Shown here in pieces: positions 2,794 through 44,472 of a stretch of 64,000 bases of DNA. The DNA lies in the NCBI RefSeq assembly GCF_003334765.1, contig NZ_QOWT01000007.1. One strand, given 5' to 3'. The notes under the pieces were generated by a model. The model had not been told where the DNA came from and did not search any database. It was given only the letters and a program-made list of their open reading frames with translations. Source of the DNA: Escherichia coli. GTDB taxonomy: Bacteria > Pseudomonadota > Gammaproteobacteria > Enterobacterales > Enterobacteriaceae. The position numbers were made by a program, and so were the translations under genes. Every line of letters begins with the position of its first letter. Positions within the stretch are counted from its first letter, which is position 1.

Positions 2794-3751
2794 GTTGTAA
2801 TCGTTGTTGCTGAAGGGTCGGCTGGGTTATCCGATGGATGAGTACATCAATCGCCAGCTCCCCCAGTTCATCTTTCGGTTGGTGGATAGTGGTTAATGGT
2901 GGCGTCATAAAGCTTGCCAGTTCGATATCGTCATAGCCAATCACCGCGATATCCTGCGGAACCTGTAACTCTGCCTGATATAACGCCTGGTAAACGCCAA
3001 CAGCCATAGCGTCATTTCCGGTAAAGACGGCCTGAGGACGCAGCGGATGTGATAGCAGTTGGCGCATAGCGTCAAACCCGCCGTTAAATTCAAAATCACC
3101 AGTGACTTCATAGCCATCAGGAATGTTGAGACCCGCACGTTTCATCGCCGCCCGATAACCTTCCAACCGCAGGCGCGCCGGAGTTTTATCCAGCGGGCCG
3201 GTAATACAGGCGATACGGGTATGACCTTTATCGATCAGATATTGCGTTGCTAAGTCTCCGCCCAGCAACGAGTTATCCTGAATAAGATCGCTGTCGCCAT
3301 CGAACGGAGCCCAGTCCATCATCACAGTAAGCACTGTCGGATAACGTTGCATGATTTCACGCGAAGGTTGATGCGTTTCGGTGCACAGTAACAGCAAGCC
3401 ATCAACGCGTTTTTGCATCAGCGTTTCCAGATTGCGATTCATCCGCTGTTCATCGCCTTCGGTATTGCAAAGGACGAGACTATAACCGCGTTCGAAGCAG
3501 CTGCGTTCAACGCCACGCACCAGTTCTGAATAGAAAGGATTGGTACTGGCAGTGATCAACATGCCAATGGTATGTGTTTGATTGAGTTTGAGGCTACGCG
3601 CCAGAGCTGATGGCGCGTAATTGAGTTCTTTAATCGCCGCTTCAACTTTGGCGGTAATCGCTTCACTGACGAAGCGATCTTTATTGATAACGTGAGAAAC
3701 TGTTGAGGTAGAAACGCCCGCCAGGCGGGCAACATCTTTCATTGTAGCCAA
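2759..3751 (-). CDS. rbsR: Ribose operon repressor, LacI family
   Basis: ORF track 330 aa; N-terminus [24 protein letters not shown] (LacI-type HTH); directly downstream of rbsK. Confidence 0.95.
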
Positions 3752-4809: not shown

Positions 4810-5700
4810 CTACTGCTTAACAACCAGTTTCAGATCAACCGGATACTTAGCCTGAACTTTCTCGCCTTTCAGCACTTTATCTGCGGTTTCGACGCCTTTC
4901 GCGCCAATCTGATCGGGTAGCTGAGCGATAGTCGCTGCTAGTTTGCCATCATTCACCGCTTTTTCGCCATCCGGTGTACCGTCAAATCCGACGACCATCA
5001 CATCCGATTTACCGGCAGTTTGCAGTGCGCGCAGCGCGCCCAGCGCCATTTCATCATTCTGCGCGAATACAGCCTGAACATCCGGATGAGCGGTCAACAG
5101 GTTCTGCATTACGTTCAAACCTTTAGTGCGATCAAAATCTGCTGGCTGGCTGGCAAGAACATTAAACTTGTGAGCAGCAACGGCCTGCTGGAAGCCTTCG
5201 CCACGTTCACGGGCTGCGGATGTACCAGCAATGCCTTGCAGCTCGATAACTTTGGCACCTTCACCCGCTTTCTTCGCGATGTAATCACCAGCGATTTTGC
5301 CGCCCAGTACGTTATCAGAAGCAATGTGGCTCACCACTTCACCTTTCGTTGCCTGGCGGTCAAGAGTGATAACCGGGATGTTCGCCTGGTTAGCCATCTT
5401 CACAGCATTACCCACTGCGTCGGAGTCGGTCGGGTTAATCAGCAGAATTTTTGTGCCGCGAACGGTTAAGTCCTGCACGTTCGCCAGCTCTTTCGCCGGG
5501 TTGTTCTGGGAGTCCAGCACCACCAGGTTATAGCCAAGTTTATCCGCCTCTTTCTGCGCGCCATCTTTCAGCGATACAAAGAACGGGTTGTTAAGCGTGG
5601 AGACCACCAGCGCGATGGTGTCTTTTGCCATCGCATTCGCACTGACGGTGGCGCTTAGCGCAACAGCGGAAACCAGGGTAGCCAGTTTTTTCATGTTCAT
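4810..5700 (-). CDS. rbsB: Periplasmic ribose-binding protein
   Basis: ORF track 4810..5706; start trimmed by two codons to [23 protein letters not shown] (signal peptide), 296 aa. Confidence 0.93.
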
Positions 5701-5724
5701 ATTCAAGATGTCCTGTAGTCGTTA

Positions 5725-6690
5725 TTACTGCTTTTTGTTGTCTACCAGCACCGCCAGCAAAATCACCACCGCTTTGACGATCATCTGGTAATAGGAGGAA
5801 ACACCTAACAAATTCAATCCATTATTAAGGAAGCCAAGAATTAATGCGCCGATCAACGTCCCAACAATGCGACCTTTTCCGCCCGCCAGACTCGTACCGC
5901 CCAGAACCACCGCAGCAATAGCATCCAGCTCATAGCCAGTCCCCGCCGTGGGTTGTGCGGAGGAGAGACGCGCCACTTCAATGATCCCGGCCAGCGATGC
6001 CAGCAGACCACAAAGAGAATAGACGATGATTTTGATTTTATTGACGTTGATACCAGAAAGACGCGTTGCCGCTTCGTTGCCGCCCAGCGCGTAGATGTAA
6101 CGCCCCAGACGCGTGTGATGCAGCATGTACCAGGCCGCGAGGAAGACAATCCCCATGATCCAGACTGGCGTCGGTACGCCCAGCGGACGACCAATACCAA
6201 ACCAGCCAAACAGATCGGCGTTCTCAGTAAAGCCGGTATTCACTGGGCTACCGTTGGTATAAACCATGGTCACGCCGCGCAGTAAAAGCATCATAACCAG
6301 CGTAGCGATAAACGCCTGGACGCGACCTTTCGCTACAATCACCCCGGTTACCGCACCAATTGCGGCACCTAACGCGAGAGCAGCAGCGACAGCCACCAGC
6401 GCATTGACTTCAATGCCGACGATAGATGCAGCAACTGCGCCGGTCAGCGCCAACAGAGAACCTACCGATAAGTCGATGCCCGACGTCAGGATCACCAGCG
6501 TCATCCCGACCGCCATAATGGCGTTCACTGAGGTTTGCTGGAGAATATTGAATAAGTTATTGATGGTGAAAAAGTTCGGGCTTAACGTCGAGACAATCGC
6601 GATCAGCACCAGCAGAGCGATAAGCGATTTCTGCTCCATCAGCCACGCTTTCGTGAAATAACGGCGACCAGAGACAGTCTGGGTTGTCAT
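5725..6690 (-). CDS. rbsC: Ribose ABC transporter permease
   Basis: ORF track 321 aa; polytopic membrane protein in the rbs operon. Confidence 0.95.
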   Translation of the reverse strand: MTTQTVSGRRYFTKAWLMEQKSLIALLVLIAIVSTLSPNFFTINNLFNILQQTSVNAIMAVGMTLVILTSGIDLSVGSLLALTGAVAASIVGIEVNALVAVAAALALGAAIGAVTGVIVAKGRVQAFIATLVMMLLLRGVTMVYTNGSPVNTGFTENADLFGWFGIGRPLGVPTPVWIMGIVFLAAWYMLHHTRLGRYIYALGGNEAATRLSGINVNKIKIIVYSLCGLLASLAGIIEVARLSSAQPTAGTGYELDAIAAVVLGGTSLAGGKGRIVGTLIGALILGFLNNGLNLLGVSSYYQMIVKAVVILLAVLVDNKKQ

Positions 6691-26777: not shown

Positions 26778-28148
26778 ATGTTGAATAATGCTATGAGCGT
26801 AGTGATCCTTGCCGCAGGCAAAGGCACGCGCATGTATTCCGATCTTCCGAAAGTGCTGCATACCCTTGCCGGGAAAGCGATGGTTCAGCATGTCATTGAT
26901 GCTGCGAATGAATTAGGCGCAGCGCACGTTCACCTGGTGTACGGTCACGGCGGCGATCTGCTAAAACAGGCGCTGAAAGACGACAACCTTAACTGGGTGC
27001 TTCAGGCAGAGCAGCTGGGTACGGGTCATGCAATGCAGCAGGCCGCACCTTTCTTTGCCGATGATGAAGACATTTTAATGCTCTACGGCGACGTGCCGCT
27101 GATCTCTGTCGAAACACTCCAGCGTCTGCGTGATGCTAAACCGCAGGGTGGCATTGGTCTGCTGACGGTGAAACTGGATGATCCGACCGGTTATGGACGT
27201 ATCACCCGTGAAAACGGCAAAGTTACCGGCATTGTTGAGCACAAAGATGCCACCGACGAGCAGCGTCAGATTCAGGAGATCAACACCGGCATTCTGATTG
27301 CCAACGGCGCAGATATGAAACGCTGGCTGGCGAAGCTGACCAACAATAATGCTCAGGGCGAATACTACATCACCGACATTATTGCGCTGGCGTATCAGGA
27401 AGGGCGTGAAATCGTCGCCGTTCATCCGCAACGTTTAAGCGAAGTAGAAGGCGTGAATAACCGCCTGCAACTCTCCCGTCTGGAGCGTGTTTATCAGTCC
27501 GAACAGGCTGAAAAACTGCTGTTAGCAGGCGTTATGCTGCGCGATCCAGCGCGTTTTGATCTGCGTGGTACGCTAACTCACGGGCGCGATGTTGAAATTG
27601 ATACTAACGTTATCATCGAGGGCAACGTGACTCTCGGTCATCGCGTGAAAATTGGCACCGGTTGCGTGATTAAAAACAGCGTGATTGGCGATGATTGCGA
27701 AATCAGTCCGTATACCGTTGTGGAAGATGCGAATCTGGCAGCGGCCTGTACCATTGGCCCGTTTGCCCGTTTGCGTCCTGGTGCTGAGTTGCTGGAAGGT
27801 GCTCACGTCGGTAACTTCGTTGAGATGAAAAAAGCGCGTCTGGGTAAAGGCTCGAAAGCTGGTCATCTGACTTACCTGGGCGATGCGGAAATTGGCGATA
27901 ACGTTAACATCGGCGCGGGAACCATTACCTGCAACTACGATGGTGCGAATAAATTTAAGACCATTATCGGCGACGATGTGTTTGTTGGTTCCGACACTCA
28001 GCTGGTGGCCCCGGTAACAGTAGGCAAAGGCGCGACCATTGCTGCGGGTACAACTGTGACGCGTAATGTCGGCGAAAATGCATTAGCTATCAGCCGTGTG
28101 CCGCAGACTCAGAAAGAAGGCTGGCGTCGTCCGGTAAAGAAAAAGTGA
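26778..28148 (+). CDS. glmU: Bifunctional GlcNAc-1-P uridyltransferase / GlcN-1-P acetyltransferase
   Basis: ORF track 456 aa; [28 protein letters not shown]; C-terminal hexapeptide-repeat region. Confidence 0.95.
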
Positions 28149-28309
28149 TTCTGGCCGGCTAACCCGGTCACATGGGATGAGGAGATAACATAATCTCCCT
28201 CCCACAAGCAGTAACTATAAAAATAACCCCACTCTCTACAAGGCTCGGGGCGCCCGAAAAAACGGGCATACAGGTTGACCGACAACGATATAAATCGGAA
28301 TCAAAAACT

Positions 28310-30139
28310 ATGTGTGGAATTGTTGGCGCGATCGCGCAACGTGATGTAGCAGAAATCCTTCTTGAAGGTTTACGTCGTCTGGAATACCGCGGATATGACT
28401 CTGCCGGTCTGGCCGTTGTTGATGCAGAAGGTCATATGACCCGCCTGCGTCGCCTCGGTAAAGTCCAGATGCTGGCACAGGCAGCGGAAGAACATCCTCT
28501 GCATGGCGGCACTGGTATTGCTCACACTCGCTGGGCGACCCACGGTGAACCTTCAGAAGTGAATGCGCATCCGCATGTTTCTGAACACATTGTGGTGGTG
28601 CATAACGGCATCATCGAAAACCATGAACCGCTGCGTGAAGAGCTAAAAGCGCGTGGCTATACCTTCGTTTCTGAAACCGACACCGAAGTGATTGCCCATC
28701 TGGTGAACTGGGAGCTGAAACAAGGCGGGACTCTGCGTGAGGCCGTTCTGCGTGCTATCCCGCAGCTGCGTGGTGCGTACGGTACAGTGATCATGGACTC
28801 CCGTCACCCGGATACCCTGCTGGCGGCACGTTCTGGTAGTCCGCTGGTGATTGGCCTGGGGATGGGCGAAAACTTTATCGCTTCTGACCAGCTGGCGCTG
28901 TTGCCGGTGACCCGTCGCTTTATCTTCCTTGAAGAGGGCGATATTGCGGAAATCACTCGCCGTTCGGTAAACATCTTCGATAAAACTGGCGCGGAAGTAA
29001 AACGTCAGGATATCGAATCCAATCTGCAATATGACGCGGGCGATAAAGGCATTTACCGTCACTACATGCAGAAAGAGATCTACGAACAGCCGAACGCGAT
29101 CAAAAACACCCTTACCGGACGCATCAGCCACGGTCAGGTTGATTTAAGCGAGCTGGGACCGAACGCCGACGAACTGCTGTCGAAGGTTGAGCATATTCAG
29201 ATCCTCGCCTGTGGTACTTCTTATAACTCCGGTATGGTTTCCCGCTACTGGTTTGAATCGCTAGCAGGTATTCCGTGCGACGTCGAAATCGCCTCTGAAT
29301 TCCGCTATCGCAAATCTGCCGTGCGTCGTAACAGCCTGATGATCACCTTGTCACAGTCTGGCGAAACCGCGGATACCCTGGCTGGCCTGCGTCTGTCGAA
29401 AGAGCTGGGTTACCTTGGTTCACTGGCAATCTGTAACGTTCCGGGTTCTTCTCTGGTGCGCGAATCCGATCTGGCGCTAATGACCAACGCGGGTACAGAA
29501 ATCGGCGTGGCATCCACTAAAGCATTCACCACTCAGTTAACTGTGCTGTTGATGCTGGTGGCGAAGCTGTCTCGCCTGAAAGGTCTGGATGCCTCCATTG
29601 AACATGACATCGTGCATGGTCTGCAGGCGCTGCCGAGCCGTATTGAGCAGATGCTGTCTCAGGACAAACGCATTGAAGCGCTGGCAGAAGATTTCTCTGA
29701 CAAACATCACGCGCTGTTCCTGGGCCGTGGCGATCAGTACCCAATCGCGCTGGAAGGCGCATTGAAGTTGAAAGAGATCTCTTACATTCACGCTGAAGCC
29801 TACGCTGCTGGCGAACTGAAACACGGTCCGCTGGCGCTAATTGATGCCGATATGCCGGTTATTGTTGTTGCACCGAACAACGAATTGCTGGAAAAACTGA
29901 AATCCAACATTGAAGAAGTTCGCGCGCGTGGCGGTCAGTTGTATGTCTTCGCCGATCAGGATGCGGGTTTTGTAAGTAGCGATAACATGCACATCATCGA
30001 GATGCCGCATGTGGAAGAGGTGATTGCACCGATCTTCTACACCGTTCCGCTGCAGCTGCTGGCTTACCATGTCGCGCTGATCAAAGGCACCGACGTTGAC
30101 CAGCCGCGTAACCTGGCAAAATCGGTTACGGTTGAGTAA
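28310..30139 (+). CDS. glmS: Glutamine--fructose-6-phosphate aminotransferase
   Basis: ORF track 609 aa; N-terminal MCGIVGAI (Ntn Cys2) and two SIS domains. Confidence 0.97.
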
Positions 30140-30165
30140 TAAATGGATGCCCTGCGTAAGCGGGG
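30104..30165. other. attTn7 (unoccupied): TnsD recognition region in the glmS 3' end plus insertion point about 23-25 bp past the stop
   Basis: Established positional relationship of attTn7 to the glmS C-terminal codons; the glmS-pstS spacer (30140-30452) contains only a terminator and the pstS promoter, with no Tn7 ends or tns genes. Confidence 0.6.
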
Positions 30166-30175
30166 CATTTTTCTT
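30146..30175 (+). terminator. glmS Rho-independent terminator
   Basis: Hairpin ATGCCC-loop-GGGCAT followed by TTTTTCTT directly after the glmS stop (30137-30139). Confidence 0.8.
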
Positions 30176-30346
30176 CCTGTTATGTTTTTAATCAAACATC
30201 CTGCCAACTCCATGTGACAAACCGTCATCTTCGGCTACTTTTTCTCTGTCACAGAATGAAAATTTTTCTGTCATCTCTTCGTTATTAATGTTTGTAATTG
30301 ACTGAATATCAACGCTTATTTAAATCAGACTGAAGACTTTATCTCT

Positions 30347-30386
30347 CTGTCATAAAACTGTCATATTCCTTACATATAACTGTCAC
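30347..30386 (+). promoter_or_regulatory. Tandem Pho boxes (PhoB binding sites) of the pstS promoter
   Basis: CTGTCATAAAACTGTCAT and TTACATATAACTGTCAC: direct repeats of the CTGTCAT-type 7-mer with 4-bp spacers, about 65-105 bp upstream of the pstS ATG. Confidence 0.85.
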
Positions 30387-30434
30387 CTGTTTGTCCTATT
30401 TTGCTTCTCGTAGCCAACAAACAATGCTTTATGA

Positions 30435-31493
<1,059 letters not shown>

Positions 31494-31576: not shown

Positions 31577-33429
<1,853 letters not shown>

Positions 33430-33448
33430 TATTGCTGACACGGTTTTC

Positions 33449-33486
33449 CCCTCACCCTAACCCTCTCCCCAGAGGGGCGAGGGGAC
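33449..33486. repeat. GC-rich imperfect palindromic extragenic repeat (family not assigned)
   Basis: CCCTCACCCTAACCCTCTCCCCAGAGGGGCGAGGGGAC: C-tracts mirrored by G-tracts around AGAGG; intergenic between pstA and pstB. Confidence 0.5.
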
Positions 33487-33527
33487 CGACCGAGCGCCTT
33501 TTTGACTCTGTACACGGTTAACACTTT

Positions 33528-33561
33528 GCCGGATGCGGCGTGAACGCCTGATCCGGCCTAC
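33528..33561. repeat. REP element (repetitive extragenic palindrome)
   Basis: GCCGGATGCGGCGTGAACGCCTGATCCGGCCTAC matches the E. coli REP consensus (GCCGGATGCGGCGT...GCCT.ATCCGGCCTAC). Confidence 0.85.
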
Positions 33562-33572
33562 GGTAAGCCTGA

Positions 33573-34385
<813 letters not shown>

Positions 34386-35320: not shown

Positions 35321-44004
<8,684 letters not shown>

Positions 44005-44472
44005 TTAACTTAAAGAGTCTGTTTCAGGACATGAAATATCCAATCCGGGTAGACGGGTAATGATTCTGCTCATCACCACACCTGCCAGCAATGCAGGAAT
44101 GATGCGGACAACGAGACTGTCACCAGAAAGAATGTTTTCAAACAACTCCGAGGAAGCCATGCCCTTAATATGTACAATAACTGCACAATAGATCTCGGTG
44201 ATAACGACGCCACCTATGCCACCAGCCAGACAACGATAACGTTTCTGTGACCCGATCTTTTCCGGCAGACAGGCAACCATTACACCGGTTAACAACGCAG
44301 GAATAGCTCCCGTAGTTATCGACAATAAGAGAAAAATTGGATGTATTATCACCCAAAGAACCAGCGGTTCTTTTGCGAAGAATATGTAGAGGACAAGAAA
44401 CAGAACACCAATTAACGGTCCTAAAACTGCAAAATAAAGTCCGTGATGTATTACCCGACGTGAAACAGACAT
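44005..44472 (-). CDS. cbrB: Inner-membrane protein CbrB (YieI)
   Basis: ORF track 155 aa; four predicted TM helices. Confidence 0.85.
   Translation of the reverse strand: MSVSRRVIHHGLYFAVLGPLIGVLFLVLYIFFAKEPLVLWVIIHPIFLLLSITTGAIPALLTGVMVACLPEKIGSQKRYRCLAGGIGGVVITEIYCAVIVHIKGMASSELFENILSGDSLVVRIIPALLAGVVMSRIITRLPGLDISCPETDSLS

Follow-up and report, generated by a model that had tools for sequence, protein, structure and literature searches.

The glmS 3′ end of an Escherichia coli K-12 relative as an unoccupied attTn7 site, and the cargo of the glmS–pstS spacer in other strains

The window, as we call the whole 64-kb stretch of DNA that was analysed, is the reverse complement of positions 3,877,978–3,941,977 of E. 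coli MG1655 (NC_000913.3), to which it is collinear with nine SNPs and no indels, and the K-12 position of any base is 3,941,978 minus its window position. The SNPs are found at 3330, 4667, 5126, 13001, 19289, 19821, 32069, 39153 and 53111, and none of the nine falls into the glmS–pstS region (30000–30500). Judged from these differences, the source of the window is a very close relative of K-12 that is distinct from the reference strain itself. The gene glmS (28310–30139, plus strand) encodes a glutamine--fructose-6-phosphate transaminase of 609 aa, which matches the equivalog model TIGR01135 over its full length with 898 bits (cutoff 418) and has the same sequence as K-12 b3729. It is preceded by glmU and followed by pstS (30453–31493, plus strand), the gene for the phosphate-binding protein (equivalog NF008171, 747 bits). 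The spacer between glmS and pstS (30140–30452) has 313 bp as in MG1655.

Several other features of the window were recorded along the way. The origin of replication oriC is located at 16003–16234 (K-12 3,925,744–3,925,975, converted by the offset), and dnaA, dnaN, recF and gyrB are present at the far end of the window. The minus strand of 58759–58839 matches the Rfam family AsdA (102 bits), whose RNA is antisense to the dnaA mRNA. A 16S rRNA gene on the minus strand (rrsC in K-12) is cut by the window edge, and its 5′ end is located at positions 1–170. In the spacer between atpC and glmU the Rfam family STnc410, an enterobacterial sRNA, was matched over its full length (26537–26694, minus strand, 188 bits). 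The corresponding spacer of strain MFDS1019527 carries an additional gene of the Bax inhibitor-1/YccA family (5165–5863 of that locus), and the atpC–glmU interval is therefore variable as well.

Directly behind glmS a terminator scan identified an intrinsic terminator (30145–30175, plus strand) consisting of an 11-pair hairpin at 30145–30170 followed by a run of T, and the hairpin folds with −18.6 kcal/mol (z = −4.0). At the other side of the spacer a pattern search revealed a tandem pair of pho boxes belonging to the pstS promoter (30347–30364 and 30369–30386, plus strand) with no and two mismatches, respectively, where 0.21 matches would be expected by chance. Both boxes are also visible as a 22-bp direct repeat, and additional CTGTCA pho-box-like repeats are present at 30243–30274. 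The spacer gave no match to any Rfam family, and the RefSeq record of MG1655 (NC_000913.3) annotates no feature in these 313 bp. Some small ORFs of 21–31 aa were considered, without evidence for any of them being a gene. The description of the spacer in an earlier note on this DNA, namely a terminator hairpin plus the pstS promoter, is thus accurate, as nothing else is detectable.

The same note had proposed that 30104–30175 is the attachment site of Tn7, whose recognition sequence is contained in the glmS 3′ end. In the published numbering of attTn7, position 0 is the third of the five bases of the target duplication and positive numbers run toward glmS (PMC2918618). We set position 0 to 30162, because natural insertions put the duplication at 30160–30164, and with this register 30104–30175 corresponds exactly to attTn7 +58 to −13, so that the proposed segment fits the published numbering to the nucleotide. 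The minimal TnsD-binding site, for which a footprint from +23 to +58 has been published (PMC2918618), then covers 36 bp on the plus strand (30104–30139) and consists of the last 11 codons of glmS plus the stop codon, CCGCGTAACCTGGCAAAATCGGTTACGGTTGAGTAA. All four bases for which mutations have been published (+31 C, +42 T, +43 T and +51 T) are matched on the complement strand, and in our own reading registers shifted by one base in either direction fail to do so. The 20 bp from the stop codon to the insertion point (30140–30159, plus strand) lie under the published TnsC–TnsD footprint and their sequence is not required (PMC2918618). They are followed by the predicted 5-bp target-site duplication GCGGG (30160–30164, plus strand; attTn7 −2 to +2, centre 30162), which is located 21–25 bp beyond the glmS stop codon and within the 3′ arm of the terminator hairpin. 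Read against the same publication (PMC2918618), the differences between strains in the TnsD site are confined to wobble positions that do not belong to the critical set, namely +35 in O157 and +35, +49 and +56 in MFDS1019527.

A comparison with the E. coli attTn7 as known from the reference did not reveal any difference: the organism and the nucleotides are the same, the TnsD site extends from +23 to +58, and the location of the insertion point within the glmS terminator, the GCGGG duplication and the placement of the right end beside glmS all agree, as this is the site-defining reference sequence with nine SNPs in 64 kb and none of them in the site. No sequence evidence against the attTn7 reading was found. 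Taken together, 30104–30175 is almost certainly the canonical and unoccupied E. coli attTn7 in its K-12 form. Among species-representative genomes the exact 36-mer was found at three loci, one of them in Escherichia sp. E1V33. It is also present on short contigs labelled as Alkalicoccobacillus porphyridii (270 bp) and as a Collinsella metagenome-assembled genome (1,038 bp), which are probably E. coli contaminations of these assemblies because the labels clash with an E. coli-identical sequence on very short contigs.

That the site is empty was supported by several searches. No Tn7 terminal sequence was found in the whole 64-kb window with up to three mismatches, and a tblastn search with TnsA–E of Tn7 and of two Tn7-like elements did not yield any tns remnants in the window, its sole matches being AAA+ noise in ravA and near dnaA with E values between 0.003 and 0.6. 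The pentamer GCGGG occurs only once in the glmS–pstS spacer and is not duplicated. Tn7 ends and a 5-bp duplication, which had been named in advance as the signs that would speak against an empty site, were both looked for in 30140–30452 and neither was detected. With no Tn7 ends, no tns remnants and a spacer length equal to that of the empty reference allele, attTn7 is unoccupied in the window, as had been claimed.

What an occupied site looks like could be seen in strain MLI105, where a Tn7 of 16,180 bp is flanked by GCGGG on both sides with the junctions ...GCGTAAGCGGG|TGTGGGCGGACAATAAAG...element...CCGCCCACA|GCGGGGCATTTTT. The element contains tnsABCDE, dfrA1-sat2-aadA1 and intI2 plus IS1 and IS2, and in-silico excision of the element together with one copy of GCGGG restores the window sequence without a single mismatch in 495 positions. 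An intact Tn7 (tnsABCDE-dfrA1-sat2-aadA1-intI2) within the same spacer type as in the window is present in GmF046, a strain in which, at another place of the same locus (32331–33608), yieK adjoins cbrB with no cbrC annotated between them, in difference to K-12 (window about 42585–44472). In 1EC213 Tn7 is located between glmS and an lpfO113 island and thus within an unrelated spacer sequence, with the duplication GGGCT on both flanks, again at +21 to +25 from the glmS stop codon. Furthermore, PK5074 and AW1.7 carry Tn7-like elements at the same nucleotide as Tn7, with the junction GCGGG in PK5074 and GGGCT, read at the left junction, in AW1.7. Their TnsD proteins share 48% (PK5074) and 43% (AW1.7) identity with TnsD of Tn7, their tnsBC are 67–70% identical to those of Tn7 at the nucleotide level, and both elements possess tnsE and no annotated cas gene. 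The cargo of the PK5074 element (20546–27041 of its locus) includes an integron integrase unlike IntI2, dfrA1 and two genes for trypsin-like serine proteases, and that of the AW1.7 element (20507–25215 of its locus) comprises a site-specific DNA methyltransferase together with a DEAD/DEAH helicase, and the two may constitute a restriction-modification pair. The tnsA region of AW1.7 is broken by an IS1.

In all five strains (1EC213, PK5074, AW1.7, MLI105 and GmF046) the gene order is glmS-tnsABCDE with the tnsA end toward glmS, and these occupied alleles share the target nucleotide, the orientation and a 5-bp duplication, the window differing from them by the missing element. Three Tn7-family lineages have therefore inserted at an equal distance from the stop codon in two unrelated spacer sequences, and the published irrelevance of the sequence at the insertion point is borne out by this. 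Insertion of Tn7 abolishes the glmS hairpin, as the fold after insertion is no better than that of shuffled sequence (z = −0.5), and this agrees with the title of Gay et al. 1986 as cited in PMC2918618, according to which Tn7 is found in the glmS terminator.

These data fit the targeting model that has been established for Tn7. TnsD encoded by the element would bind the last 36 bp of the glmS reading frame (30104–30139) and would recruit TnsC across the following approximately 20 bp, upon which the TnsAB transposase would join the element ends at staggered positions 21–25 bp past the stop codon (30160–30164, GCGGG). The predicted outcome is a 5-bp duplication and a single orientation with the right end of Tn7 (tnsA side) beside glmS. 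TnsD binding, TnsC recruitment and the chemistry are taken from the literature, and both TnsD binding and TnsABC+D-directed transposition have been published for exactly this sequence (PMC2918618); the register, the emptiness, the orientation and the loss of the hairpin were computed here. The site would act as a safe harbour, in which selection on the GlmS C-terminus keeps the recognition sequence constant and the insertion falls outside of the gene.

In order to compare the spacer across the species, as the earlier note had suggested, we surveyed 5,426 complete E. coli genomes. Of these, 5,425 matched a probe of 1,021 bp with the site at its centre, which was uninterrupted in 3,007, and 3,066 contained a probe of 64 bp spanning the insertion point, either in one piece (3,001 genomes) or split (65 genomes). 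The right end of Tn7 fused to glmS was detected in 102 of the 5,426 genomes. All 102 junctions of glmS with Tn7 that were found involve the right end, and a junction query for glmS fused to the left end had no contiguous match among complete E. coli genomes. Several of the 102 are K-12 or laboratory strains that lack an annotated tnsA, as exemplified by the K-12 derivative NZ_CP010444.1, in which the left end (28090–28255) and the glmS–right-end junction (29926–30226) are about 2 kb apart. Such short Tn7-ended inserts without annotated tnsA would be engineered mini-Tn7 insertions. They also bear on the idea that the site is perfect in its sequence and yet unusable in the strain of the window, for example through the lack of a host factor or through target immunity. 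Nothing in the sequence speaks for this idea. L29 and ACP have been published as host factors used by TnsD (PMC11406308). With no Tn7 end in 64 kb there is nothing nearby to confer target immunity, and since K-12 derivatives in the database do carry inserts at this site (NZ_CP010444.1) we regard an unusable site as extremely improbable.

DNA similar to tnsBC was present in 111 genomes according to the nucleotide search, 14 of the places being on plasmids. Sorted by identity, 99 of the records show at least 99%, two show 90–95% and 12 show 60–80%, and a second nucleotide search seeded with tnsBC of AW1.7 did not result in any further Tn7-like lineage. CRISPR-associated transposons (CASTs) did not turn up in these searches, which covered tnsBC at the nucleotide level and recovered only Tn7 and the two Tn7-like lineages from E. 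coli genomes. The CASTs that target glmS belong to type I-B1 and occur naturally only in cyanobacteria; they share with Tn7 the targeting of the conserved glmS 3′ end by TnsD, and other CAST types use other attachment sites (PMC11406308). The remark that CASTs are among the users of this site therefore fits the cyanobacterial type I-B1 only and is of marginal relevance to E. coli.

By far the most frequent cargo in the spacer turned out to be of another kind. In about 45% of the genomes the 1,021-bp probe breaks at query position 501/502, one or two bases past the glmS stop codon, and an operon for long polar fimbriae (lpf) is found between glmS and pstS in approximately 2,267 of the 5,426 genomes (about 42%). 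Among these, 1,918 carry the lpfO113 type and its variants (5.4 kb; for instance 12502–17921 of its own locus) and 349 carry the lpf2/OI-154 island of O157:H7 (6.9 kb; 12503–19445 of its own locus). An lpf operon between glmS and pstS has been described before for E24377A, SMS-3-5, Sakai and SE11 (PMC2608844), and the lpf2 island of O157 is known as OI-154 (PMC5357955). The window contains no lpfA–D, as its 313-bp spacer holds no ORF of note. Overall, about 55% of the 5,426 genomes have the short empty spacer, about 42% an lpf operon and about 2% Tn7 or a Tn7-like element at the very position predicted. About 45 genomes fall into none of these classes, since the K-12-type sequence and an intact left junction of the lpf type are both absent from them and the Tn7 counts do not cover them either; at least some of them are probably diverged lpf variants like that of MFDS1019527, an lpfO113-like variant with a fourth post-stop sequence. 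The expectation that cargo appears at this place in related strains has therefore been confirmed by Tn7 in 102 of 5,426 genomes, by two Tn7-like lineages at the same nucleotide and by lpf operons in about 2,267, and where the site itself is occupied the Tn7 right end or tns genes are indeed found beside glmS. As cargo in the glmS–pstS spacer, lpf operons outnumber Tn7-family elements about 20-fold. Occupancy of attTn7 itself is low, and the larger part of the variation at this locus, made up by the lpf islands, has nothing to do with the attTn7 mechanism.

The lpf2/OI-154 and lpfO113 operons occupy the same intergenic interval as attTn7 but they replace a part of it. Homology of the window to O157 and to strain H10 ends at 30140/30141 and restarts at 30343–30348 with the first pho box, so that a K-12-type segment of 203 bp (30141–30343, 36.5% G+C) is missing from lpf-carrying strains and is replaced by the island. 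On the left the islands are bounded by the glmS stop codon and not by the insertion point of Tn7, on the right by the first pho box, and the pho boxes (30347–30386) form the right-hand edge of the conserved sequence that is common to all spacer types. Nothing similar to the 203-bp segment was found within the lpf islands, each of which supplies its own terminator hairpin straight after the glmS stop codon. These boundaries may mark the end of selective constraint, given by the glmS reading frame on one side and the pstS promoter on the other, and the alternative segments between them would have been exchanged through the conserved flanks.

It is accordingly rather probable that the spacer is a cassette slot between glmS and the pstS promoter, with the 203-bp K-12 type, islands of the lpfO113 type or the lpf2/OI-154 island of O157 as contents that are swapped by homologous recombination in the flanks. 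This is suggested by the occurrence of lpf islands in about 2,267 genomes versus 102 with Tn7, by the replacement of 30141–~30343 without any resemblance to that segment, by boundaries that match the end of glmS on one side and the first pho box on the other, and by the presence of an O157-type lpf2 island with 98.3% identity in the non-coli strain Escherichia sp. E1V33. It is also in line with the lpf operons already described at this position (PMC2608844; OI-154, PMC5357955). The homologous exchange itself is deduced from the boundary positions only, and a cassette slot leaves the exact and orientation-specific Tn7-family junctions at +21 to +25 unexplained. It adds to the attTn7 reading and does not exclude it.

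Could transposition through attTn7 have brought in the lpf operons as well? The different post-stop segments (K-12, lpfO113, O157 lpf2 and the diverged lpfO113-like one) might be relics of repeated cargo delivery at attTn7 followed by decay, and if this were true the lpf operons would have come as transposon cargo of Tn7-family elements whose ends and tns genes were lost afterwards. We consider this very unlikely, as the left boundaries are located at the stop codon rather than at +21 to +25. Similarity to tns genes was not significant either, as the best match in a tblastn search of the lpf islands with 14 Tns proteins had an E value of 0.03 and covered about 30 residues, and their left junction did not show any duplication or end of the Tn7 type. 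A loose scan for end motifs resulted in a single weak match, located close to the right edge of the O157 island. The lpf islands as decayed Tn7 cargo were thus rejected. A second possibility of this kind concerns the window itself, in which the 203 bp of the K-12-type spacer could be a scar, that is the A+T-rich remainder after the loss of a Tn7-like element or of an lpf island. Its G+C content of 36.5% compared to 52–54% in the flanking genes would fit, as would its confinement to one class of genomes, but low G+C is usual in intergenic DNA of E. coli and the segment looks like an ordinary intergenic region in having additional pho-box-like repeats and a terminator that appears functional. 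Moreover, it shows no similarity to lpf island sequence and no Tn7-type ends, tns remnants or duplicated GCGGG, and there is hardly any chance that it is such a scar.

The site in the window is hence the reference attTn7 that is already known, ordinary and without new biology. An attachment site of Tn7 at glmS of E. coli was reportedly described by Lichtenstein and Brenner in 1982 and by McKown et al. in 1988. Knowledge of attTn7 goes back to the 1980s; it was defined by experiment and today serves routinely as a neutral site for the insertion of genes by mini-Tn7. New in this work are the population figures for the site, which were obtained from 5,426 complete genomes. For practical purposes a PCR across glmS–pstS separates the different states, and a long product usually indicates an lpf operon rather than Tn7. 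For the biology of Tn7 in E. coli it follows from the occupied alleles that insertion is independent of the spacer type downstream of glmS, and the strain from which the window originates would be expected to accept Tn7 at the usual high frequency.
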